Assembly: GCA_037137775.1 (NCBI GenBank)
Contig: JBAXJQ010000001.1
Location: 32,316 to 96,315, forward strand
Reading direction: 5' to 3'
DNA: 64,000 nucleotides
Origin: Candidatus Falkowbacteria bacterium
GTDB lineage: Bacteria > Patescibacteriota > Patescibacteriia > Patescibacteriales > GWE2-39-37
The notes beneath the pieces were generated by a model. That model saw nothing but the letters and a program-made list of their open reading frames with translations. It was not told the DNA's origin and ran no database searches. Position 1 is the stretch's first letter, and each line of letters starts with the position of its first letter. A program made the position numbers and the translations under genes. Positions 32,205 through 56,213 of the stretch are shown in pieces.

Positions 32205-32837
32205 ATGTGTAGCGAATTTAAAACATCCCTTTTTGAAGAACCTTTAATCATCGACTACACGGCGTTGCTTAAGGAGGCAAGAGATTTTTCGCCAGAGTTA
32301 AAAAATGCCATAGAAGGTGTGATTAATGAAAAGATTGGCAATATTGCCAGGCGAAAAAACATTATTATATCATCGAGCTGGTTATACGAAATTGAAGATA
32401 GGCTTAATCATGATAATCCAGCAACAATAAATTCTGATTTACGTAAAATTATTTTAAAGCTGCTAATAAAAATTACAAACAGTAACTTGGGCGTAAGTTC
32501 AGACAATAAAGAATTAAAACTATTACTTCATAATTTAACTTTGGAAGATAATAATGCTGATCTAATAGAAAAAGGAGCACACCCGGCCTTGGTCGGACAA
32601 TACGGCGATGGGCACCAAGAAATTAAGGAGATTCTTGGCACAAATCCTTACATAAAAAATCATGGTAGAGGTAAAGAAGATGATATTGGCCATATTTATC
32701 GAACTAAGGGAAGTAGACGAGTGAATGGTAATTCTTCAAAACAGGTAATAACCGATCCAAATCAAGAATGGCTAAAAACACATGAGCGGGAAAAAGAGAA
32801 GGCAGAAGATGAATTAAGAAAACTTCGTTTTGGATAA
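32205..32837 (+). CDS. Hypothetical cytosolic protein (210 aa), AT-rich; its 3' end overlaps the htrA start
   Basis: Long ORF with a possible co-transcription overlap with htrA. I recognise no motif in it. Confidence 0.4.
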   Translation: MCSEFKTSLFEEPLIIDYTALLKEARDFSPELKNAIEGVINEKIGNIARRKNIIISSSWLYEIEDRLNHDNPATINSDLRKIILKLLIKITNSNLGVSSDNKELKLLLHNLTLEDNNADLIEKGAHPALVGQYGDGHQEIKEILGTNPYIKNHGRGKEDDIGHIYRTKGSRRVNGNSSKQVITDPNQEWLKTHEREKEKAEDELRKLRFG

Positions 32838-33975
32838 CTATAAACCAAAAAAAATGAAAACACGATTAAAATATTTTTTTCTCATTTCAGTCGGTTTTTT
32901 TATTGGTCTAAGTGCAATTGTGCTGCAACCCAAAACAATTGCTAATGTTTTGCAGTTAGATGAACAGGCGGCAACGGTATTGGCAATAAATAAAGTATCA
33001 CCTGCGGTGGTAAATATCGATCTTTTTGCCGATCAAGTAGTAACAAAGCAAGATGAATTAACGGGTCAGTCTAAAAGCGAAAAGCAAACTAAAAAAGTCG
33101 GTTCGGGAACTGGTTTTTTGGTTTCAGCCGATGGTTTAATCTTGACCAATAAACATGTTATTCAAGTAGATAACCCTTCTGCGGCAAGTTATCGGGTTAC
33201 TCTACATAGCGGTAAAAAATACTACGCGCAACTTATTGGCAATGATCCGTTAAATGATTTAGCGGTTATTAAAATTTTTGATAAAAAATTACCGTTTGTA
33301 GAGTTGGGTGATAGTGATAAGTTAACCGCTGGGTTATCTGTTATTGCCATTGGCAATGCGCTCGGTATTTATCAGAATTCAGTTACCAAGGGCATTGTGA
33401 GTGGTTTAAATCGGGATATTGTGGCGAGCGATCAATCGGGCAATGCAGAAAATTTGGGTAACATCATTCAGACTGATGCAGAAATAAATGTTGGCAATTC
33501 GGGCGGGCCGTTAGTTGATCTAAATGGTAAGGTGGTTGGCGTGAACGTTGCCACAGATCTTTCCGGTGCCTCAATTGGCTTTGCTATACCAATTAACGAT
33601 GCGAGGCCAGTAATACAAAGCGTTTTAAAATCGGGACGAATAATTCGACCACGACTGGGAATAAGATATTTAACGTTAACCCCTGAAATAGCCAAAGAAA
33701 ATAAATTGGCGCGTGATAGCGGAGCCTGGCTAAATACAAGTGAAACAGGCGAATCGCCGATTACACCTGGTTCTCCAGCTGAAAAAGCTGGCCTTAAAAC
33801 TGGGGATATTATTTTTGAAATCAATGGCAAGGCGCTGTCGGAGGCCAACACTCTAATAAGTTCTACTCAAAAACTAAAACCAGGTGACAGTATAAAATTG
33901 AAAGTTTTTCGTGATGACAAGGTAATAATACTGCAGGCAATATTAGATGAGTTTATGATTAACTTGCGTTCTTAA
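32830..33975 (+). CDS. htrA: HtrA/DegP-family serine protease with a C-terminal PDZ domain
   Basis: Catalytic triad contexts TNKHV, DLAV and GNSGGPL, with a PDZ segment (GLKTGDIIFEINGK). Confidence 0.85.
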   Translation: MDNYKPKKMKTRLKYFFLISVGFFIGLSAIVLQPKTIANVLQLDEQAATVLAINKVSPAVVNIDLFADQVVTKQDELTGQSKSEKQTKKVGSGTGFLVSADGLILTNKHVIQVDNPSAASYRVTLHSGKKYYAQLIGNDPLNDLAVIKIFDKKLPFVELGDSDKLTAGLSVIAIGNALGIYQNSVTKGIVSGLNRDIVASDQSGNAENLGNIIQTDAEINVGNSGGPLVDLNGKVVGVNVATDLSGASIGFAIPINDARPVIQSVLKSGRIIRPRLGIRYLTLTPEIAKENKLARDSGAWLNTSETGESPITPGSPAEKAGLKTGDIIFEINGKALSEANTLISSTQKLKPGDSIKLKVFRDDKVIILQAILDEFMINLRS

Positions 33976-47141: not shown

Positions 47142-47215
47142 GGTCGCATGGCTCAGTTGGTTAGAGCGCACCGTTCACATCGGTGAGGTCCCAGGTTCGA
47201 GTCCTGGTGCGACCA
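47142..47215 (+). tRNA. tRNA-Val (anticodon CAC)
   Basis: Cloverleaf with acceptor GGTCGCA/TGCGACC, D-arm GCTC-AGTTGGTTA-GAGC, anticodon arm CACCG-TTCACAT-CGGTG and T-arm CCAGG-TTCGAGT-CCTGG. CCA is not encoded. Confidence 0.9.
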
Positions 47216-47224
47216 CAAGTAAAG

Positions 47225-47618: not shown

Positions 47619-48371
47619 ATGTCACAGTATTATAATCCTAAGCGTACCAAAAATATTTTTAACCCAACTTCTCCGGAGCCGTTCAAAATCAGCCGGTCGA
47701 AAATCGATCTATTTTTGAATTGCCCGCGCTGTTTTTATCTCGATCGCCGGCTTGGCATCGGTCAACCGCCAGGCTTTCCATTCAATCTCAACTCCGCCGT
47801 TGATGCCTTGCTAAAAAAGGAATTTGATATTCATCGGGCAGGGAACACAGCGCATCCTTTGATGAAGGCCTATGGCTTAGATTTAGTTCCGCTGCAGCAC
47901 GAGTTGATGGACGAATGGCGGGAAAATTTTAAGGGAGTGCAGTTTTTGCATGAGTCGACCAATTTCTTGGTTACCGGTGCGGTGGATGATTTATGGGTGG
48001 ATAAGAATAATAAGATTCACATTGTTGATTATAAGGCTACCAGTAAATCGACCGAGGTGAATCTAGATGCGGATTGGCAGATAGGCTATAAGCGCCAGAT
48101 GGAAATTTATCAGTGGTTAGTGCGCAACAACGGTTATACTGTATCGGACGTGGGTTATTTCGTGTATTGCAACGGTAAAACCGACCGTGAGGCCTTTGAT
48201 GGCAAGCTAGAATTTGATATCAAAATTATCCCTTATACCGGTGATGCCTCATGGGTAGAGAAGGAGTTAATTAAAGCGCATGATTGTCTGATGAGCAAAA
48301 AAATTCCTAAGCTGGGTGTCAATTGCGATTATTGCCAGTATGTAGCAGCGGTAGAAAAAGCAACAAAATAG
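47619..48371 (+). CDS. PD-(D/E)xK nuclease-family protein with a 4-Cys cluster (Cas4/RecB-nuclease-like)
   Basis: N-terminal CPRCFY, the core motif VDDLWVDKNNKIHIVDYKATSK (D...DYK) and C-terminal CDYCQY fit Cas4-like and AddB-like Fe-S nuclease domains. Confidence 0.65.
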   Translation: MSQYYNPKRTKNIFNPTSPEPFKISRSKIDLFLNCPRCFYLDRRLGIGQPPGFPFNLNSAVDALLKKEFDIHRAGNTAHPLMKAYGLDLVPLQHELMDEWRENFKGVQFLHESTNFLVTGAVDDLWVDKNNKIHIVDYKATSKSTEVNLDADWQIGYKRQMEIYQWLVRNNGYTVSDVGYFVYCNGKTDREAFDGKLEFDIKIIPYTGDASWVEKELIKAHDCLMSKKIPKLGVNCDYCQYVAAVEKATK

Positions 48372-48465: not shown

Positions 48466-49854
48466 GTGAACGAATACAAATTATTACTTAAATCAATTAC
48501 CCAGCCAACAGCTGATTTGCTAATATTAGAGCTGGTTAATCATGACAACAGTCCAGTTTTTAGTTATAAGCCGGGTCAATACGTGATGTTGTCGTATGTT
48601 AATGAGCAGGGTAAAAAAGAGGAAAAACATGCTTTTTCTATTGCCAGCTCACCAACCGAGAGTGGGGTTATTCGGTTAGGCATTCGGAAACAGGGAACAT
48701 TTACTCAAGGCTTAGCCAAGCTCAAGCCCGGTGCGCCTTTTGTTGTGTATGGTCCGTATGGTCATTTTTGTTTTAACGAAACCAAGCATCCCGATGTCGT
48801 TTTTTTTGCTGGCGGTATTGGCATTACGCCATTTTACAGTGCAATGCGTTACGCTACGGATAAGGGTTTGTCAAATAATTTGTCATTGGTTTATAGTAAT
48901 CGTACCTTAGCCGGTACTGCGTTTTATAATGAAATTAATAATTTAGCCAGTAACAATCCTCGATTACGAACATTGTTTTCCGTGACTGATGAGACATTGC
49001 CAGTAGCTGCACCAAATTTGTTAAATAAAAAAATCGATTTATTTATAACCAAAGATTTTATTGGCACAACGGTTGGTAAGACATTTTTCTTGTGCGGGCC
49101 AGCACCATTCATGGCTGGCATGAAAAAAAATCTGTTAGAACTCGGTGCGCTTGAGGAACAAATTTTAATGGAAGAGTTTTCCATGATTTCAACTCAGAGT
49201 TTTTTCTTAAAGATAAAATATCTCTCCACCGTGGCAGGCTATGGTGCTTTGGCATTGCTACTACCGTTGTATTTAATCTCGGCAGCTAGCGGTAAAAGCT
49301 TGTTTATTAAGCCAACTGCTGCAACCGCAGTTTTAAATCAAGCTCAGGACAACACCCAGCCCCCATTAAATAAATTGCCAGAGGCAGACGACAAAATTCC
49401 TTATAATGATCTGACAGACGATGATGAAAATAATAAAATTGAATTTGATCAGGCCGCTACTCAGCCAACTGCTGTTGCTGACTCGGTAAGTAATGGTTTG
49501 GTAGAACCAATAAAATATCAAGCTCCAGTTCCAGTAAAACCGGTTCAACCAACTGCCATAAAGAACTCGGTTGTTAAACAACCAGTAGCAGCACCCAAGC
49601 CGACCACCGCTGCATCAGTGGTAACTAAAACAACTCCAGCGCCTATTACTCCGACTACGCCAGCGCCCGTAACATCCGCCTCGGCACCAGCTGGCAGTGC
49701 TACCACGCCTTCGACAAATAATAATCCAACCGTTGCGCCAACACCAACAACCGGCGCCTCGACTGCAGCTACTGGTGGAACGGTTTCAAACCCAACAACA
49801 CCCACAACAAATACTGGTGGCAGTCGTCGAAATAGAGAAGATGATGATGATTAA
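48466..49854 (+). CDS. FNR-like FAD/NAD(P)-binding oxidoreductase domain, then one TM, then a Pro/Thr-rich low-complexity tail
   Basis: The FAD motif HAFSIASSP (RxYS-like), GPYG and the NAD motif FFAGGIGITP occupy roughly the first 240 aa. A TM helix LSTVAGYGALALLLPLYLISAAS follows, and then a PT-rich tail ending RRNREDDDD. A GTG start is used. Confidence 0.6.
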   Translation: MNEYKLLLKSITQPTADLLILELVNHDNSPVFSYKPGQYVMLSYVNEQGKKEEKHAFSIASSPTESGVIRLGIRKQGTFTQGLAKLKPGAPFVVYGPYGHFCFNETKHPDVVFFAGGIGITPFYSAMRYATDKGLSNNLSLVYSNRTLAGTAFYNEINNLASNNPRLRTLFSVTDETLPVAAPNLLNKKIDLFITKDFIGTTVGKTFFLCGPAPFMAGMKKNLLELGALEEQILMEEFSMISTQSFFLKIKYLSTVAGYGALALLLPLYLISAASGKSLFIKPTAATAVLNQAQDNTQPPLNKLPEADDKIPYNDLTDDDENNKIEFDQAATQPTAVADSVSNGLVEPIKYQAPVPVKPVQPTAIKNSVVKQPVAAPKPTTAASVVTKTTPAPITPTTPAPVTSASAPAGSATTPSTNNNPTVAPTPTTGASTAATGGTVSNPTTPTTNTGGSRRNREDDDD

Positions 49855-49863
49855 AAATAACCC

Positions 49864-50268
49864 ATGAAAAAATTTAAGATTATTAGTTTGCCGATTTTAT
49901 TGTTAGCAGTAGTTTTTAGCATAGGCGGCTATTATTGGGGTGCGCTCAGTCAGCGTTCTAAAGTTTATATTATCACAAGAAATGATCAAGTATCGACGAC
50001 TACGCCTACAAATCAGGTTGCGACAACTACCAACGTAAAGCCAGTTACAAGTGTTTCAGGCGTGGTTGCACCAGTTGTAACTAAACCGGCTCCCGTTCCA
50101 ACCGCTCCAAGTATAGTCAAGCCAAGTGCAACAAAACCAAACATCCCTGCCGTAAACCAGCCGGCCACAGTGAAGCCAACACCGACACCAACCCCTGCAC
50201 CAGTTGTTATGCCAGTTCCAGTCCCGACACCAACTCCTGCACCAGCACCTACTACAAAGGTTTCTTAG
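49864..50268 (+). CDS. Pro/Thr-rich small membrane-anchored protein
   Basis: Signal-anchor MKKFKIISLPILLLAVVFSIGG followed by a PT-rich, low-complexity extracellular region. Confidence 0.45.
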   Translation: MKKFKIISLPILLLAVVFSIGGYYWGALSQRSKVYIITRNDQVSTTTPTNQVATTTNVKPVTSVSGVVAPVVTKPAPVPTAPSIVKPSATKPNIPAVNQPATVKPTPTPTPAPVVMPVPVPTPTPAPAPTTKVS

Positions 50269-50272
50269 TCGT

Positions 50273-51220
50273 ATGGCAATGTTATGGAAAAAATTTGAGG
50301 CATTAGGCACAGAAATTATTATTACCGCCGACTTACGACCTGAACAGAAATATTTACTTGATAAGGCGCAAGCCAGTGTAGTGGAATTTGAGCAACGATT
50401 TAGTCGCTTTATTCCAGATAGCGAGCTTAACATGTTGAATAATTTTGCAGGCGGAGAATATCGCCTTAGCGCCCAATTTGCGGATTTACTTAAACACGCA
50501 CAAACGTTTTATCACGAAACCAACGGTTTATTCGATCCAGTAATAATTGATGTCTTAGAGGGAATTGGTTATGACCGAAATTTTTCCGATATTAATTCAC
50601 ATAATCTAACTAAACAACAGGTAGAAATTAAATGGCAGACAGCTAGTTCGATCTATGAACATCGTCCAAAAATGGATGAGTTAAAGATGAATGGGGAAGT
50701 AGCACTGGTGCCACCTGGTTTTAGATTAGATTTAGGTGGATTGGGTAAGGGCTACGTTGTAGATTTAATTGCCCGTGAAGTGTTTGCCGATATTAAAAAT
50801 TTTTGGATATCAGCTGGTGGCGATTTACTTGCCAATGGTAATGATGAACAGAAAAATGGCTGGCAGATTGGCGTGCAAAATCCATTAAAGCCAGAATCCG
50901 AAAGTTTTTACATCAACACCTTGGGTAAGCAGCTTGGCATTGCTACTTCTGGGGTAATTAAACGCAAGGGCGAGGCCGGTGGACTTGCATGGCACCATAT
51001 CATTGATCCACACACTGGTCGTCCGGCTATAGTTGATATCTTGTCCGTTAGTGTAGTCGCTCCATCGGCAGAGACAGCTGATGTATATGCTAAAACAATA
51101 TTATTGCTTGGCTCAAAGGCTGGAGTGGAATTTGCGGATCAACACGAGGGCGTGGGTTGTATTATATTTTTAACAGACGGTGCTCCGATTTTTTCACGGG
51201 GCATGGTCGCATATTTGTAA
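50273..51220 (+). CDS. apbE: FAD:protein FMN transferase (ApbE family)
   Basis: DLGGLGKGYVVD and WHHIIDPHTGRP are hallmark ApbE motifs. No obvious signal peptide is present. Confidence 0.8.
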   Translation: MAMLWKKFEALGTEIIITADLRPEQKYLLDKAQASVVEFEQRFSRFIPDSELNMLNNFAGGEYRLSAQFADLLKHAQTFYHETNGLFDPVIIDVLEGIGYDRNFSDINSHNLTKQQVEIKWQTASSIYEHRPKMDELKMNGEVALVPPGFRLDLGGLGKGYVVDLIAREVFADIKNFWISAGGDLLANGNDEQKNGWQIGVQNPLKPESESFYINTLGKQLGIATSGVIKRKGEAGGLAWHHIIDPHTGRPAIVDILSVSVVAPSAETADVYAKTILLLGSKAGVEFADQHEGVGCIIFLTDGAPIFSRGMVAYL

Positions 51221-51225
51221 ATTAT

Positions 51226-51942
51226 ATGGAACGAATTATAAAAATTATTTTGATTTTGGCAGTAGTAACCACTATTGGGTATGTCTTGGGGGTAGGCACA
51301 AATACGAGTGAAGTACGAGTTAAAGATGCACAAGGAAATGTTCAAGTAATAAAGCCAGCCGCGACAAGCGAACTTGCAGCGCTTAATCCAGGATATGTTT
51401 CACAGCTTCCGTGGTTTATTTCTCGTTCATCTGCTTTAGCTGCGTACATTTTGTTATTTGCCATCGTAATTTGGGGCATGGGCATGACCGTTGGTTGGAC
51501 ATACAAAATTTTTGATCCAGCACGAGCCTGGCAACTACATCAAGACATGAGTCTTTCTTTTGCGGTTTTAGTAGTAGTACACGCCTTTTCATTGTTATTC
51601 GATCATTTTATAAATTTTACCATTCTGGATATTTTGATTCCGTTTTTTTCCAAATTTAACACCATCTTTTTAAGCTTGGGTATAATTGGATTCTATTTAC
51701 TTGTTGCCATTGTGGTAATTTCAGTATTCTTGCGACTTAAGATGCCACGTTTGTGGCGCCTGAATCACTATTCAACCTTTTTGTTATTTATTTTTGCTAC
51801 TTTACATGGGTTTAACATGGGTACGGATTCGTCTACGATGATTATGAAAATTGTCTACCCAGTTGCTGCTATTGTGTTTTTATTAGTTGCCACATATCGC
51901 TTTATTATTTATCCTCTGAGTGTAAAAAAGAAAATCGGCTAA
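51226..51942 (+). CDS. Ferric-reductase-like transmembrane (FRD) domain protein with bis-heme His pairs (MsrQ/NOX TM-domain-like)
   Basis: Six TM helices carry H-x13-H (HQDMSLSFAVLVVVH) and H-x12-H (HYSTFLLFIFATLH) pairs, as in FRD/NOX helices 3 and 5. No FAD/NAD domain is attached. Confidence 0.7.
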   Translation: MERIIKIILILAVVTTIGYVLGVGTNTSEVRVKDAQGNVQVIKPAATSELAALNPGYVSQLPWFISRSSALAAYILLFAIVIWGMGMTVGWTYKIFDPARAWQLHQDMSLSFAVLVVVHAFSLLFDHFINFTILDILIPFFSKFNTIFLSLGIIGFYLLVAIVVISVFLRLKMPRLWRLNHYSTFLLFIFATLHGFNMGTDSSTMIMKIVYPVAAIVFLLVATYRFIIYPLSVKKKIG

Positions 51943-51956
51943 AGTTTCGACATTTT

Positions 51957-52000
51957 AAAACGAATTTGTCAATTAAAAAAAGGCAAATTCGTTTTATTTT
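51957..52000 (+). terminator. Rho-independent terminator after the FRD gene
   Basis: Hairpin aaaacgaatttg...caaattcgtttt followed by ATTTT. Confidence 0.6.
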
Positions 52001-52086: not shown

Positions 52087-52487
52087 TTCTAGGTCAAACA
52101 GGCGGCTGCTCGGGGCAAAAAATATGCCTCGGGAGGAAAGTCCGGACTCCAACAAAATGATGGTGGCTAACGGCCACGAGGAGTAATCCTACGGAAAGTG
52201 CCACAGAGACAATACTAGCTTCGAGTTAATCGAAGTGAAAGGTGAAAAGTTTCAAGAGGTTTTCGTTCTATTGGCTAGCCGTTTAACGAAGGCTACTTGA
52301 TTCGCTCCCATGTGAGTGGGATGCGTGGTAAACCCCATCTGGAGCAAGAGCAAACCTATAGGTTGTTGCATAAGCAATACGCTATAGATGAAAAGTGGCT
52401 CGCTTGAAGCGATTGGTAACAATCGTTCCAGATAGATAGTCGTCCTCTTAATTAAGAGACAGAATCCGGCTTACGGTTGGCCTAGAA
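52087..52487 (+). ncRNA. rnpB: RNase P RNA (bacterial rnpB)
   Basis: P4 strand GGGAGGAAAGTCCGGACTCC, the GTGCCACAGAGACAA region and the 3' ACAGAATCCGGCTTACGG are all conserved. P1 pairing is ttctaggtcaaac with ggttggcctagaa. Confidence 0.85.
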
Positions 52488-52515
52488 ATATCTGCATTGG
52501 TAAAATAAATAAATT

Positions 52516-53931
52516 ATGAAGCGATCAGAATTATTTTTTTCTTTTCTTTTGGTGCCGCTCGACTTCGCTATGATTGTCTTGGCTGGAATTTCAGCCTATA
52601 ATTTGCGTTTTGCGCAAATAGCCACGGAAATCCGTCCAGTTATTTTTAATTTGCGTTTCGGTGACTATATTCAAATTTTACTCGGCATTGCGATTGCTTG
52701 GCTTTTTATTTTTGCGTTTGCTGGGTTATATCGCATTCGGGGAAATAAAAGCTTGGTTAACGAATTTTATTCGATTGTTCAAGCTAGCTCTACTGGCTTG
52801 GTGTTAATCGTTTTATTAATTTTCTTTTTTCGCGAGTTATTTTCCTCGCGATTTATTGTATTAGCCGGCTATGTTTTGGCCATGTTGTATATTTTAATTG
52901 CTCGATTGATTGTTCGTTTAATCCAACGCATTTTATATAATCACAATATTGGGGTACGTAAAGTTGTTATTGTGGGTAATGGCAAAACGGCAGATATTTT
53001 AATTGCGTATTTTTCTAGTCGCAAAGTTGCTGGCTATGAAGTTTTTAAGCGTTTGCGTGATTTTAGTTTGGAAACGGCGCAAGAGTTGGCAAAAATGCTT
53101 GAAACGAAAGAGGCGGACGAGATAATTCAATGCGATCCAAATTTATCTAAAGCTGAGGTGGTTCGATTGTTTGATTTTGCTTACGAACACCATTTGAGTT
53201 TTAAATACGCTGCTGACCTACTTGATGCCAAGGTGTTAAAGACAGAGGTGACAGAGGTGGTGGGCATTCCAATAGTAGAGGTAGAACGAACATCGCTAGA
53301 GGGTTGGGGGCGCATTATTAAACGCATTTTTGATATTATTGGTTCAAGCTTAATCATTATTATAATTAGTCCAATATTACTAGTCACTGCTATGTTAATT
53401 AAGCTGGACTCTAGAGGGCCGGTGTTTTTTAATAAGCGTGATGATGGTACGCCAGTTTATCGAGTCGGGCAGGGTGGCAGGTTGTTTAAATATTTTAAAT
53501 TTCGTTCGATGCGCCCTGGAACTGACAATATGCGTTACGCAGAGTTGGCTGGTCAAAATTTACGCAGTGATGGGCCGATGGTAAAAATTAAGGACGACCC
53601 GAGAGTAACTCGCGTGGGGAGATTTATTAGACGATTTAGTATTGATGAACTAGCGGAGCTGTTTTTGGTGCTAAAGGGCGACATGAGCCTAGTTGGTCCT
53701 CGACCACATTTGCCAGAGGAAGTTGCTAAATACGAGCAATCTCACAAAAAAGTGTTAACCATTAAGCCAGGGATAACTGGTTTGGCTCAGGTTTCTGGTC
53801 GCAGTGATTTAACGTTTGAAGAAGAAGTAAAGCTCGATACCTATTATATTGAAAATTGGAGTTTATTATTAGACTTATCAATCATGTTGCAAACCCCGAT
53901 GGCCGTACTAAAAAATCGTCAAGCTGAATAG
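52516..53931 (+). CDS. Polyprenyl-phosphate glycosyl-1-phosphate transferase (bacterial sugar transferase, WbaP/PglB-like with a CoA-binding-like domain)
   Basis: N-terminal TM helices, a Rossmann-like central domain and the C-terminal sugar-transferase motifs GPVFFNKRD...FKFRSM...SLVGPRPHLPEE. Confidence 0.8.
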   Translation: MKRSELFFSFLLVPLDFAMIVLAGISAYNLRFAQIATEIRPVIFNLRFGDYIQILLGIAIAWLFIFAFAGLYRIRGNKSLVNEFYSIVQASSTGLVLIVLLIFFFRELFSSRFIVLAGYVLAMLYILIARLIVRLIQRILYNHNIGVRKVVIVGNGKTADILIAYFSSRKVAGYEVFKRLRDFSLETAQELAKMLETKEADEIIQCDPNLSKAEVVRLFDFAYEHHLSFKYAADLLDAKVLKTEVTEVVGIPIVEVERTSLEGWGRIIKRIFDIIGSSLIIIIISPILLVTAMLIKLDSRGPVFFNKRDDGTPVYRVGQGGRLFKYFKFRSMRPGTDNMRYAELAGQNLRSDGPMVKIKDDPRVTRVGRFIRRFSIDELAELFLVLKGDMSLVGPRPHLPEEVAKYEQSHKKVLTIKPGITGLAQVSGRSDLTFEEEVKLDTYYIENWSLLLDLSIMLQTPMAVLKNRQAE

Positions 53932-53934
53932 CCT

Positions 53935-55053
53935 ATGAAAGTTGCCTTAGTTCATGATCACTTAGCTCAAGATGGTGGCGCGGAAAAAGTATTAAAGGTT
54001 CTAACCGAGCTTTTTCCTGACGCACCGATTTATACGCTATTGTTCGAGCCCAAGAATGTCAGTAAAAATTTTAAGAACAAGGATATTCGGACATCGATTA
54101 TCCAGCGTTTGCCGGGAGGCATAAAACATTATCGATGGTATTTGCCACTCATGCCCATAGCGGTAGAGTTTTTTGATTTGCGAGATTACGACGTGGTCAT
54201 CTCGGATGCCAGCGCATTCGCCAAGGGTGTAATTACCACTTCGGAAACACTTCATATTTGTTATTGCCATACCCCTACACGGTATCTCTGGAGTGATTCT
54301 CACCAATATTTGAATGAGCTTAGCTATAATAAATATTTTAAAAAAATTATCGCGCTTTTGTTAAGTAATTTACGGCTTTGGGATCGAGCTGCAGCAGATC
54401 GGGTTGATACGTTTATTGCTAATTCCAACTTCATCGCTCGTCGCATCACAAAGTATTATAAGCGTGATTCACAGATTATATATCCGCCAGTTGATGTTGA
54501 TCGTTTTGGCATTTCAAAAGAAATTGGTGATTTTTATTTGATTGGTGGTCGGATTGTACCATATAAGCGAATTGATATTACCGTGGAAGCATTTAAAAAA
54601 TGGGGCAAGAAGTTGGTGGTATTTGGTGATGGGGTAGATTTACCTCGCTTAAAGAAAATTGCTGCTGGTGCACCTAATATCGAATTTGTTGGTCGGGTTG
54701 ACGATGCCACGCAAGCGGCACTGTATCAAAAGTGTTTGGCCTTTATTCATCCGCAAGAAGAGGACTTTGGTATTACTGCGGTTGAGGCCATGGCGTCTGG
54801 ACGGCCTGTTGTTGCCTATGGCCGGGGTGGGATACTGGAAATTGTAGCCAATCATAAGACGGGGGTGTTTTTTCACGAACAAACGGCTGACGGGTTACTT
54901 CGCGTCTTAGAGCGTTTTAATCCATTGGCATTTGACCCCAACGTTATTCGCGCCAAGGCCGAGTCATTTTCACGGGAGCGGTTTCGTCAGGAATTAAAAC
55001 ATTTTATCGAGCAAGAATATTGTCGCTTTACTCAAGGTAAGTGTGATTTTTAA
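53935..55053 (+). CDS. Family 4 glycosyltransferase
   Basis: GT-B fold with the EEDFGITAVEAMASGRPVVAYGRGG (E-x7-E) motif. Confidence 0.8.
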   Translation: MKVALVHDHLAQDGGAEKVLKVLTELFPDAPIYTLLFEPKNVSKNFKNKDIRTSIIQRLPGGIKHYRWYLPLMPIAVEFFDLRDYDVVISDASAFAKGVITTSETLHICYCHTPTRYLWSDSHQYLNELSYNKYFKKIIALLLSNLRLWDRAAADRVDTFIANSNFIARRITKYYKRDSQIIYPPVDVDRFGISKEIGDFYLIGGRIVPYKRIDITVEAFKKWGKKLVVFGDGVDLPRLKKIAAGAPNIEFVGRVDDATQAALYQKCLAFIHPQEEDFGITAVEAMASGRPVVAYGRGGILEIVANHKTGVFFHEQTADGLLRVLERFNPLAFDPNVIRAKAESFSRERFRQELKHFIEQEYCRFTQGKCDF

Positions 55054-55055
55054 TT

Positions 55056-56213
55056 ATGCGTATTGGCATCGATGCCACGCCCTTGCTAGATAAGCAATAT
55101 AGTGGCGTGTCAGAATTAACGTATCAATTGCTCAAAAATATTATTCCACAAGATCAGGACAATACCTATGTCCTGTTTTGTAATTCAAGACACAAATTGC
55201 CCGTAAATTTTAATGAATTGACTCGACTAGGTGCAAAAGTTGAAACAACACACTATCCTAGTAAAGTATTTAATTATATTTTACAAAAACGTCTGGGGTA
55301 TCCCAAATTAGACAAGAGAACTAACGCTGATATTTTTTATTCGCCACATTTTAATTTCGGTGCAATTTTGAAGGCCACTCCAGCGATAATGACCGTGCAT
55401 GACGTCTCATTTTTGCATTATCCGGAATTTTTTTCTTGGCGTAAAAATGTATGGCATCGTCAACTTGATATTATTCCCTTACTGCAAAAACAAAACAGGC
55501 TAGTAGCAGTTAGTGAACAAACCAAGCAAGATGTGATTCGAATGTGTCAGATTGATGCGGAAAAAATTTCCGTTGTGTATCCTGGTATTAATTCGTTGTA
55601 TCTAAATAATGCGACAAGTCAAAATGACAAAGACGCAATTGTTGAAAAATATCATTTGCCCAAAAAGTTTATTTATACATTAGGCACCATTGAGCCTCGT
55701 AAAAATATTGATGGTTTAATTCTGGCATATGAAGCACTGCGAGAAAAATACCAAGATTTAAGTGAATATCATTTAGTGATCGCTGGAGCCTCTGGTTGGA
55801 AAAATAGCGCGATTTATCAAACATGGGAAAAATCAAAATTTAAAAATCAAATTCATTTTTTAGGCTATGTGCCGCTTGAAGACAAGCTTGGCTTGTACCA
55901 GCTTGCTACCATTTTTGTTTATCTTTCATATTATGAGGGGTTTGGCTTCCCACCACTCGAAGCGATGGCCTCTGGCACGCCAGTGGTTTCTAGTTATGCT
56001 GGTAGCTTGGCAGAGGTCTTAGCAGACGCAGCATTATTAGTTGATCCCTATAATCATTTAGACGCAACCGAAGCCATGGCAACCATGCTTCAATCCGAAT
56101 CGGTGCGTCAAATCTATATTGAGCGAGGCTTAAATCAAGCCAAGCAATTTAACTGGAAAAATACTGCTCTAAAATATTTAGAGATTTTTAAGACTGCTAA
56201 AAAGATTAAATAA
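55056..56213 (+). CDS. Family 4 glycosyltransferase
   Basis: YEGFGFPPLEAMASGTPVVSS motif and a GT-B fold. Confidence 0.8.
   Translation: MRIGIDATPLLDKQYSGVSELTYQLLKNIIPQDQDNTYVLFCNSRHKLPVNFNELTRLGAKVETTHYPSKVFNYILQKRLGYPKLDKRTNADIFYSPHFNFGAILKATPAIMTVHDVSFLHYPEFFSWRKNVWHRQLDIIPLLQKQNRLVAVSEQTKQDVIRMCQIDAEKISVVYPGINSLYLNNATSQNDKDAIVEKYHLPKKFIYTLGTIEPRKNIDGLILAYEALREKYQDLSEYHLVIAGASGWKNSAIYQTWEKSKFKNQIHFLGYVPLEDKLGLYQLATIFVYLSYYEGFGFPPLEAMASGTPVVSSYAGSLAEVLADAALLVDPYNHLDATEAMATMLQSESVRQIYIERGLNQAKQFNWKNTALKYLEIFKTAKKIK

Follow-up and report, generated by a model that had tools for sequence, protein, structure and literature searches.

Four consecutive plus-strand genes at positions 48,466 to 51,942 of a 64,000-nucleotide stretch of contig JBAXJQ010000001.1 from Candidatus Falkowbacteria bacterium (the whole stretch is called the window below) encode, as separate polypeptides, what is very probably the split transmembrane core of a NOX-type electron-transfer system. 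We propose that this operon, which also encodes the FAD:protein FMN transferase ApbE, specifies a quinone-independent electron exporter of the NOX/FRE type that passes its electrons to flavin mononucleotide (FMN) tethered to long, disordered protein tails. This full mechanism we consider evenly poised between right and wrong, because ApbE looks cytosolic, judging from its N-terminus, while the segments that bear the putative attachment motif are predicted to lie outside the cell. The list of open reading frames (ORFs) has the four genes exactly where an original prediction for this DNA had placed them. Their products and the features of the core are as follows.

48466..49854, plus strand: ORF1 (462 amino acids, aa), FNR-like FAD/NAD(P)H oxidoreductase subunit with a transmembrane (TM) anchor and a disordered Pro/Thr-rich tail (ORF list, Pfam, AlphaFold2 (AF2) model, Foldseek)
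48466..49185, plus strand: cytosolic FNR-type domain of ORF1, aa 1-240 (motifs, homologue conservation, AF2/Foldseek)
48628-48654, plus strand: HAFSIASSP, NOX/FRE-like His variant (HPFT-type) of the RxYS-type FAD motif of ORF1 (motif coordinates)
48808-48831, plus strand: AGGIGITP nucleotide loop of ORF1 (motif coordinates)
49219..49287, plus strand: only TM helix of ORF1 (aa 252-274; LLP[LF]Y core conserved) (hydropathy scan, AF2 helix 244-274, homologues)
49288..49854, plus strand: predicted extracytosolic, disordered Pro/Thr-rich tail of ORF1, ending in acidic REDDDD (pLDDT <50, no Pfam match at E up to 10)
49864..50268, plus strand: ORF2 (134 aa), signal-anchored Pro/Thr-rich protein with the tail motif (see below) at its very C-terminus (ORF list, orthologue comparison)
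49879..49947, plus strand: N-terminal signal-anchor TM of ORF2, aa 6-28, after MKKFK (hydropathy scan)
50273..51220, plus strand: ORF3 (315 aa), FAD:protein FMN transferase of the ApbE type, signal peptide and lipobox both absent (Pfam, PDB match, N-termini)
50729-50755, plus strand: DLGGLGKGY motif of ORF3 (aligned with ApbE structures)
50993-51019, plus strand: HHIIDPHTG motif of ORF3 (aligned with ApbE structures)
51226..51942, plus strand: ORF4 (238 aa), six-TM ferric-reductase-domain (FRD) di-heme cytochrome b (hemes predicted)
51538..51582, plus strand: TM3 His pair H105-x13-H119 of ORF4, predicted heme ligands (invariant in alignments A1 and A2; helix 98-123)
51766..51807, plus strand: TM5 His pair H181-x12-H194 of ORF4, predicted heme ligands (invariant in A1 and A2; helix 174-202)

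Parts of a probable NOX-type core encoded as separate proteins

The N-terminal part of ORF1 scores above the Pfam cut-offs for FAD_binding_6 (34.7 bits, cut-off 21.1), NAD_binding_1 (36.9, cut-off 22) and FAD_binding_8 (24.6, cut-off 22), and it gives sub-threshold NCBIfam matches to many FNR-type reductase modules. Besides the FAD motif and the nucleotide loop listed above, it contains PGQY, GTFT (GxFT), GPYGHF (GPxGxF), CGP and EEF (E-x-F, with the C-terminal aromatic), and the motif columns are invariant or nearly so across 67 homologues. The AF2 model has pLDDT values above 90 over aa 1-240 and was matched by Foldseek to flavohemoglobin, cytochrome b5 reductase, NqrF and SpNOX dehydrogenase domains (E 1e-20 to 1e-17); in comparison with the PDB, 1gvh reached E 1.4e-20, and 1gvh, 4eh1 and NqrF fell within E 1e-20 to 1e-18. 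The modelled region thereby confirms the normal two-domain FAD/NAD fold and motifs that the original prediction had expected, and FAD is presumably its cofactor. Residues 252-274, inside AF2 helix 244-274, form the only hydrophobic TM segment of the protein, for which an N-in/C-out topology is predicted and which presumably docks onto the FRD subunit. Behind it follows a disordered tail of ~188 residues rich in Pro, Thr, Ala and Ser, so that the forecast of an FNR module with one TM helix and a Pro/Thr-rich tail holds throughout.

The membrane-embedded partner would be ORF4, whose AF2 model is a six-helix TM bundle (pLDDT 87) that is superimposable on solved FRD proteins and matches NOX and STEAP enzymes. 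All four histidines, H105, H119, H181 and H194, are invariant in the 18 sequences of A1 and lie as H-x13-H and H-x12-H pairs on TM3 and TM5 of the model, in agreement with the six-TM, bis-His arrangement proposed originally, and they are predicted to ligate two hemes. As for the Pfam families that had been anticipated, those of the FNR and ApbE proteins were matched directly; PF01794 (Ferric_reduct) was reached not by ORF4 itself but by 17 of the 18 A1 sequences, which are 30-55% identical to it (best E 6.9e-09), and precomputed PF01794 matches are also on record for ORF4 homologues. The placement of ORF4 in the PF01794 superfamily (NOX/FRE/STEAP/MsrQ) is thus one by transitive homology. The parts of a NOX protein are accordingly distributed over two genes here, and, as had been noted, their order is the reverse of that in NOX.

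The remaining two genes lie between these parts. ORF3 belongs to the ApbE family (PF02424, Pfam E 1.7e-53, 182 bits), as originally assigned, and its best PDB match is Listeria monocytogenes FmnB (7esa, E 1.1e-23). Its DxGGxxKG, (A)TSG and HHI(I/L)DPxTG motifs align with those of 7esa and other ApbE structures, and the motifs for FAD binding and catalysis known from characterised FMN transferases are retained, among them the His of HHIIDP. It begins only 9 residues ahead of the first conserved strand. ORF2 was rightly described as signal-anchored and Pro/Thr-rich: MKKFK is followed by 23 hydrophobic residues, and the remainder of the protein is rich in Pro and Thr. No family match was obtained for ORF2 in Pfam (also none at E up to 10), and a homologue search with this low-complexity sequence returned no significant match; ORF2-like genes nevertheless occupy the same position in six other loci (L001, L003, L004, L040, L041 and L042).

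Conservation of the cassette

Neighbourhoods were collected by homologue look-up with ORF4 and ORF1, by genome and metagenome scans, and by a search of all recovered loci with the window proteins; the profile scans yielded 3 loci from genome contigs and 25 from metagenomes. The order FNR-TM-tail, optional small gene, ApbE, FRD is kept in at least 24 distinct loci, with protein identities of ~25-60% and unrelated flanks, which bears out the co-conservation expected for the four genes with the qualification that the small gene is optional. By the available labels, nearly all of these cassettes come from Patescibacteria, and one is labelled candidate division KSB1. The ORF4 sequence itself is identical to an annotated protein of a Candidatus Falkowbacteria metagenome-assembled genome, which places the host among the Patescibacteria/CPR. 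In every cassette examined, apbE lies between the FNR and FRD genes. The core of the cassette is three genes, since the spacing in several loci (L015, L025, L026, L030-L032, L037) does not allow for a small gene. More distant relatives are classical fused FRD-FNR proteins (L035; P0280-P0323).

In other subgroups, whose FNR tails end in ...TRVS, the small gene is unrelated to ORF2 and encodes a secreted, very acidic protein (L006 4687-5058; L010 5223-5714; L011 5405-5782; L016 5686-6060; L022 3342-3746; L023, L024, L028; L039 5172-5660). These proteins have no Pfam match of their own, though their repeats (DSDxDGxxDxxDK...GEDDF...NGIxDELE, DxDxDG-type) are TSP3/EF-hand-like, by their look Ca-binding, and resemble the TSP3_bac repeats that the N-terminus of the FRD protein often bears in cassettes with an acidic small gene. 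The window's subgroup has its acidic element elsewhere, in the poly-Asp with which the ORF1 tail closes. Acidic elements always come with the system, either as poly-Asp tail ends or as TSP3 modules and small acidic proteins, and their sequences may point to a metal, for instance Fe(III), as the acceptor.

A conserved tail motif as the candidate flavinylation site

The tails carry a short motif, PxP[T/R]Tx[A/V]S, whose occurrence is far from random. Specifically, 42 of 69 FNR-TM-tail homologues end in xT.[VMATL]S-COOH, as against 0.19 expected and at most 3 obtained when each tail was shuffled 1000 times. The terminal consensus is P-[AV]-P-[TM]-P-[RT]-T-R-V-S, with an invariant Thr at position -3 and an invariant Ser at position 0. 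A second class of tails, which includes that of the window, has a poly-Asp/Glu end and one to four internal copies of P-x-P-[TVI]-T-x-[AVS]-S; the internal pattern P.P[TVIE]T.[AVS]S was found in 52 copies versus 0.14 expected from the shuffles. A third branch ends in C-T-T-x-Q-S-G-[IV]-T-T-C, near the canonical SGAT. In total, a terminal or internal form of the motif is present in 59 of the 69 homologues. The copies in the operon are these.

49594..49617, plus strand: motif copy 1, PKPTTAAS, ORF1 aa 377-384, candidate FMN site S384 (motif enrichment)
49660..49683, plus strand: motif copy 2, PAPVTSAS, ORF1 aa 399-406, candidate FMN site S406 (identical PAPVTSAS in homologues P0214 and P0222)
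49738..49761, plus strand: motif copy 3, PTPTTGAS, ORF1 aa 425-432, containing TGAS at aa 429-432, candidate FMN site S432 (alignment A3)
50038..50058, plus strand: motif-like KPVTSVS, ORF2 aa 59-65, weaker candidate site (PxPVTSVSG in P0221 and P0238)
50242..50265, plus strand: terminal PAPTTKVS-COOH, ORF2 aa 127-134, candidate FMN site S134 (same or near-identical end in L003, L001, L004 and L042)

In alignment A3 (29 sequences), S432 shares an invariant column with the terminal Ser of the homologues, and P425, P427 and T429 are conserved at 90% or more. A motif at or close to the end of the small protein is likewise the rule where the FNR tail itself ends in poly-Asp: in 7 of 7 such cassettes, the extra ORF2-like protein has the motif at its C-terminus or no more than 4 residues away from it. 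The ends are PAPTTKVS in L003, PTPTTKAS in L001, PAPQTNVS in L004 and PQPATKVS in L042, and other ORF2-like proteins of the subgroup end in PTPTTSASPTKP and PIPTTGASAPK.

How close does this motif come to a known ApbE target? ApbE attaches FMN to the last Ser/Thr of D-x-x-[ST]-G-A-[ST] (PMC12052999). The [ST]-G-A-[ST] core occurs once in the operon, as the T-G-A-S of copy 3; the other copies read T-A-A-S, T-S-A-S and T-K-V-S, and the tail motif as a whole keeps positions -3, -1 and 0, that is, an [ST]-x-[AV]-[ST] skeleton. The resemblance of TGAS to the flavinylation motif, suggested originally as a loose one, is therefore stronger than was claimed, as TGAS is one copy of a conserved and highly non-random element. 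Mutagenesis of the canonical site fits a tolerant recognition: exchange of D for A had a minor effect, G to A and A to V left ~50% flavinylation, and short unstructured tags were accepted as ApbE substrates (PMC12052999). The candidate sites here sit at pLDDT <50 and not in a folded FMN_bind, NqrB/RnfD or DUF2271 domain.

Other candidate substrates were sought and dropped. No ORF of at least 60 aa in the window contains D..[ST]GA[ST], so that the conserved Asp at -6 is lacking throughout, and the sole other [ST]GA[ST] among these ORFs lies in an unrelated one at 32830-33975. A canonical substrate, be it an FMN_bind domain or D..[ST]GA[ST], was thus not found in the operon or among the window ORFs of at least 60 aa; neither this absence of FMN_bind nor the missing signal peptide and lipobox of ApbE had been part of the original prediction. 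A cytosolic site in the FNR domain was also rejected, as comparison with relatives that have no TM helix and tail, or are FRD-fused, gave no Ser/Thr motif specific to the subgroup. Because FMN_bind, D..[ST]GA[ST] and a subgroup-specific FNR site are all missing, the conserved genes offer ApbE no plausible substrate other than the tails, and we infer from these sequence comparisons that they may be flavinylated.

Proposed mechanism and alternatives

In the scheme that we propose, cytosolic NAD(P)H would reduce FAD on the FNR domain of ORF1, which its own C-terminal TM helix would hold at the membrane, and electrons would cross through the two b-hemes of ORF4, first the inner and then the outer, to the outer face of the membrane. 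There, the acceptor would be FMN groups covalently attached by the ORF3 ApbE to the last Ser of PxP[T/R]Tx[A/V]S, with three sites in the ORF1 tail and one more at the C-terminus of ORF2. The flexible tails could serve as leashes on which the flavins, reduced at the outer heme, traverse the wall to meet an external oxidant such as Fe(III) or O2, and the result would be an NAD(P)H sink for an organism without a respiratory chain. Because ApbE has no export signal, we propose that flavinylation of the unstructured tails takes place in the cytosol and precedes their export, which would remove the need for a flavin exporter; unconventional export of ApbE would be the alternative. A relay free of any folded flavin domain, in which a signal-less ApbE loads FMN on an eight-residue motif, the tail is exported, and the flavin swings from heme to acceptor, is a step that we advance only tentatively.

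Several observations weigh against this scheme. In none of 22 cassettes did the ApbE show a signal peptide or lipobox, even when its reading frame was extended as far as it goes, and both motif-bearing segments are predicted to be outside, that of ORF1 (N-in) following a folded cytosolic domain and that of ORF2 following a signal anchor; in Escherichia coli, a cytosolic ApbE was no substitute for the exported enzyme (PMC12052999). Every confirmed ApbE substrate offers a folded flavin-binding environment (PMC11334425), and here there is none. The majority form of the motif, T-R-V-S, has Arg in place of the canonical Gly and comes without the Asp, and the Ser/Thr motifs of such Pro/Thr-rich regions could instead be sites of O-glycosylation or of interaction with the wall. 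An acceptor or terminal reductase is not encoded nearby. Finally, ORF4 itself gave no match in Pfam (even at E up to 10), in NCBIfam or to PDB sequence models.

Part of this evidence would be accommodated by a simple NOX or ferric reductase in split form, where ORF1 and ORF4 pass electrons to O2 or Fe(III) at the outer heme and the motif has nothing to do with flavin. ApbE would then have a cytosolic role, be it in FAD/FMN handling or, on the model of Klebsiella, in the flavinylation of a cytosolic enzyme encoded elsewhere, and the motif might, for instance, mark O-glycosylation sites, help to span the wall or to adhere, or dock acidic Ca-binding partners. The FRD fold agrees with this, as the NOX and STEAP proteins that it matches reduce O2 or metals with no extra flavoprotein; so do the missing export signal, given that cytosolic ApbEs are documented (PMC12052999), the departure of the majority TRVS from SGAT, and the acidic elements (poly-Asp, TSP3 repeats, small acidic secreted proteins), which suggest cation or metal binding. 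Against this, apbE keeps its place between FNR and FRD genes in every cassette examined, despite wide divergence and changing flanks, and no conserved cytosolic candidate site is present in the FNR domain. The motif, moreover, retains [ST]-x-[AV]-[ST] and is near-canonical in two branches (TGAS or SG[IV]T), and the glycosyltransferase genes 3' of rnpB are not conserved beside other cassettes. We regard this explanation, the chief rival, as possible, on balance doubtful.

The absence of a signal on ApbE would also be consistent with a target on the cytosolic or membrane side of the complex itself, namely, the FNR domain, an FRD loop or the juxtamembrane region, where covalent FMN would replace or supplement FAD, an arrangement useful to a flavin scavenger. 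Flavinylation can evolve on formerly noncovalent flavoproteins (PMC11334425). The conserved Ser/Thr residues of the FNR domain, however, all belong to ordinary family motifs shared with the relatives mentioned above, and no [ST]GA[ST]-like site is conserved in this domain or in ORF4, which makes such a target improbable. Still less probable, and the least likely of the options raised originally, is that the operon encodes an MsrQ-type feeder of a separate extracytosolic reductase, e.g., an MsrP-like one, with the FNR subunit in the role of Fre. It is true that source databases name several ORF4 homologues "methionine sulfoxide reductase heme-binding subunit" or YedZ and that the FRD family includes MsrQ (PMC8238504), but no gene for MsrP or another molybdoenzyme adjoins any locus examined, and ApbE and the conserved tails would be left unexplained.

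An exporter with tethered FMN would bear on the open question of how the ultra-small bacteria of the Candidate Phyla Radiation (CPR)/Patescibacteria, which are without electron-transport chains or quinones, dispose of reducing equivalents: if true, such cells would have a self-contained means of delivering NAD(P)H electrons to the outside, whether to reduce or take up iron, to reduce O2 or to interact with a host. Should ApbE really act on the tail motif, covalent flavins would work without a folded flavin-binding domain, the recognition code would be broader than D-x-x-[ST]-G-A-[ST] and include a new substrate class, and surveys that filter on signal peptides and FMN_bind would have undercounted flavinylation in CPR.

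Genomic context and variation among cassettes

Intergenic gaps within the four-gene set are 4-10 nucleotides (nt). From reading of the DNA and comparison with orthologues, the start of ORF3 was refined to ATG 50273, 4 nt past the ORF2 stop, in place of an upstream TTG at 50204, and that of ORF4 to ATG 51226, 5 nt past the ApbE stop. The possibility that ORF2 and ORF3 are one gene (anchor, linker, ApbE) split by a frameshift or an error in the sequence was rejected, because in 7 diverged cassettes the ORF2 stop lies 4-50 nt before the ApbE start and the beginning of ApbE falls at one conserved strand throughout. Downstream, the following element separates ORF4 from rnpB.

51956..51996, plus strand: hairpin with a perfect 15-bp AT-rich stem, then a U-rich run, between ORF4 and rnpB (RNA fold)

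Its folding energy is -16.1 kcal/mol (z = -5.4), and 0 of 200 shuffles fold equally well, so that it is likely the intrinsic terminator that closes the operon; a consensus promoter/terminator scan of the region was uninformative and missed this AT-rich hairpin. The RNase P RNA gene rnpB (bacterial class A, 224.6 bits) follows directly at 52090-52488, in line with the termination that had been proposed just before it.

Upstream of the operon lie a tRNA-Val(CAC) gene (47142-47216) and a gene for a PD-(D/E)XK nuclease (47619-48371). On the other side, 3' of rnpB, positions 52516-56213 hold a polysaccharide-type cluster with a Bac_transf initiating sugar transferase and two presumed glycosyltransferase ORFs; that these glycosyltransferases act on the Pro/Thr-rich tails was considered and rejected, as the linkage is not kept beside other cassettes, and the cluster is probably unrelated to the tails. 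Over the whole window (1-64000), nearly all ORFs of at least 120 aa are on the plus strand and the GC skew is positive in each 2-kb bin, which fits a location within one leading-strand replichore; the skew drops to 0.03-0.05 at 48-52 kb, where C-rich Pro/Thr codons dominate.

Some loci carry additional genes. In L038 (6862-9182), four follow the cassette: a secreted Big_14-like Ig protein, a signal-anchored protein of 170 aa, a second signal-less ApbE (270 aa) and, on the opposite strand, a fused FRD-FNR protein. By eye, the 170-aa protein looked like FMN_bind (…YKDGTY…GGKITSV…IGGASLTT…); it has no Pfam or PDB sequence support and was not used as evidence. A secreted Ig-like protein is encoded directly 3' of the FRD gene in two distant cassettes (L038 6862-7701, L039 7467-7967), with weak Big_14 matches and a conserved C-P-x-E-P-L-x-V-Y motif, and is absent from the window. 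Two Chloroflexi-type loci, L007 (5251-6789) and L008 (4341-6801), contain distant FRD homologues with a signal-anchored, Gln-rich coiled-coil protein upstream and no adjacent FNR gene. In L008, SGAT stands directly after the TM helix, and ApbE has a 75-aa N-terminal extension; in L007, a second small protein ends in ...FRTSGS, and there is no ApbE within 6 kb. A DNA_alkylation (PF08713) gene is found near the cassette in otherwise different loci (L002 6723-7433, L003 5031-5741, L040 6907-7617, L039 1322-2032), and a glyoxalase/Ble-like gene precedes it in L002, L003 and L041; this proximity may mark a functional tie or residual synteny.

Comparison with known systems

Among the enzymes with the same fold, NOX proteins (SpNOX, csNOX5, NOX2, DUOX; STEAP being the other matched group) are single chains that produce superoxide or H2O2, with the TM part first and the dehydrogenase last, whereas the operon has two chains in the reverse gene order; NOX has no ApbE, and here the dehydrogenase module carries its own TM helix and a ~190-aa tail. 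A separate rather than fused reductase is shared with E. coli MsrQ, an FRD-family heme protein that is said, in work ascribed to Juillan-Binard et al. (2017), to be reduced by the soluble Fre, a separate FNR-like NAD(P)H flavin reductase. Fre, in contrast to ORF1, is soluble, unlinked and untethered, MsrQ feeds MsrP, and neither ApbE nor tails take part.

The likeness to Listeria flavin-based extracellular electron transfer (Ndh2, EetA/B, PplA, FmnB; PMC9973259) lies in a monoderm cell whose ApbE-type FmnB flavinylates a surface protein that passes electrons to extracellular acceptors. That pathway, however, depends on quinone, a lipoprotein FmnB, folded FMN_bind domains in PplA and flavin export, whereas in the cassette a quinone step, a folded flavin domain and an exported ApbE are all missing. 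Multiflavinylated proteins (PMC8238504; PMC11334425; PMC10339131) similarly place several predicted flavin sites on one extracytosolic, wall-spanning chain, for which longer-range electron transfer has been proposed; they do so with strings of folded FMN_bind domains instead of eight-residue motifs in a disordered Pro/Thr-rich chain, and a later structural survey of ApbE substrates has only folded ones (PMC11334425). The cytoplasmic ApbE of Klebsiella pneumoniae (PMC12052999) also has no signal peptide and is active in the cytosol, but its substrate is a soluble cytosolic fumarate reductase with a canonical FMN_bind, and no such linked substrate exists here. Our literature search found no paper linking Patescibacteria and ApbE.

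The closest described relatives are the "MsrQ-like" flavinylation clusters, defined by Méheust et al. (2021, PMC8238504) as a PF01794 gene in a cluster with apbE or an FMN-binding gene, a definition under which ORF4 falls. They are mostly found in Actinobacteria, sometimes tied to iron uptake, and CPR were strikingly underrepresented in that survey, which kept only ApbE and FMN-binding genes with a signal peptide or lipidation site (PMC8238504). Because signal-less ApbE genes were discarded, the present cassette would have been missed. The original statement that the arrangement was not characterised therefore needs to be narrowed: apbE clusters of the MsrQ-like kind had been described bioinformatically (PMC8238504), and the signal-less variant lies outside that survey. 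Shared by both are a predicted di-heme membrane protein beside apbE (PF01794 there, and by transitive homology here), a PF00175 module that implies NAD(P)H as the donor, and a proposed export of electrons to an extracytosolic flavin, possibly for iron reduction. In the MsrQ-like clusters, however, the MsrQ-like protein itself carries the NAD-binding domain as a C-terminal fusion, whereas here this domain is part of a separate upstream FNR polypeptide and is followed by its own TM helix; a folded FMN-binding-domain (PF04205) substrate is typical there, and the candidate sites here are short motifs on disordered tails; and their ApbE and substrates have signal peptides, which was a selection criterion, whereas this ApbE has no export signal and comes from Patescibacteria rather than Actinobacteria. 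The cassette would work like the MsrQ-like class yet departs from it in several of its typical features.

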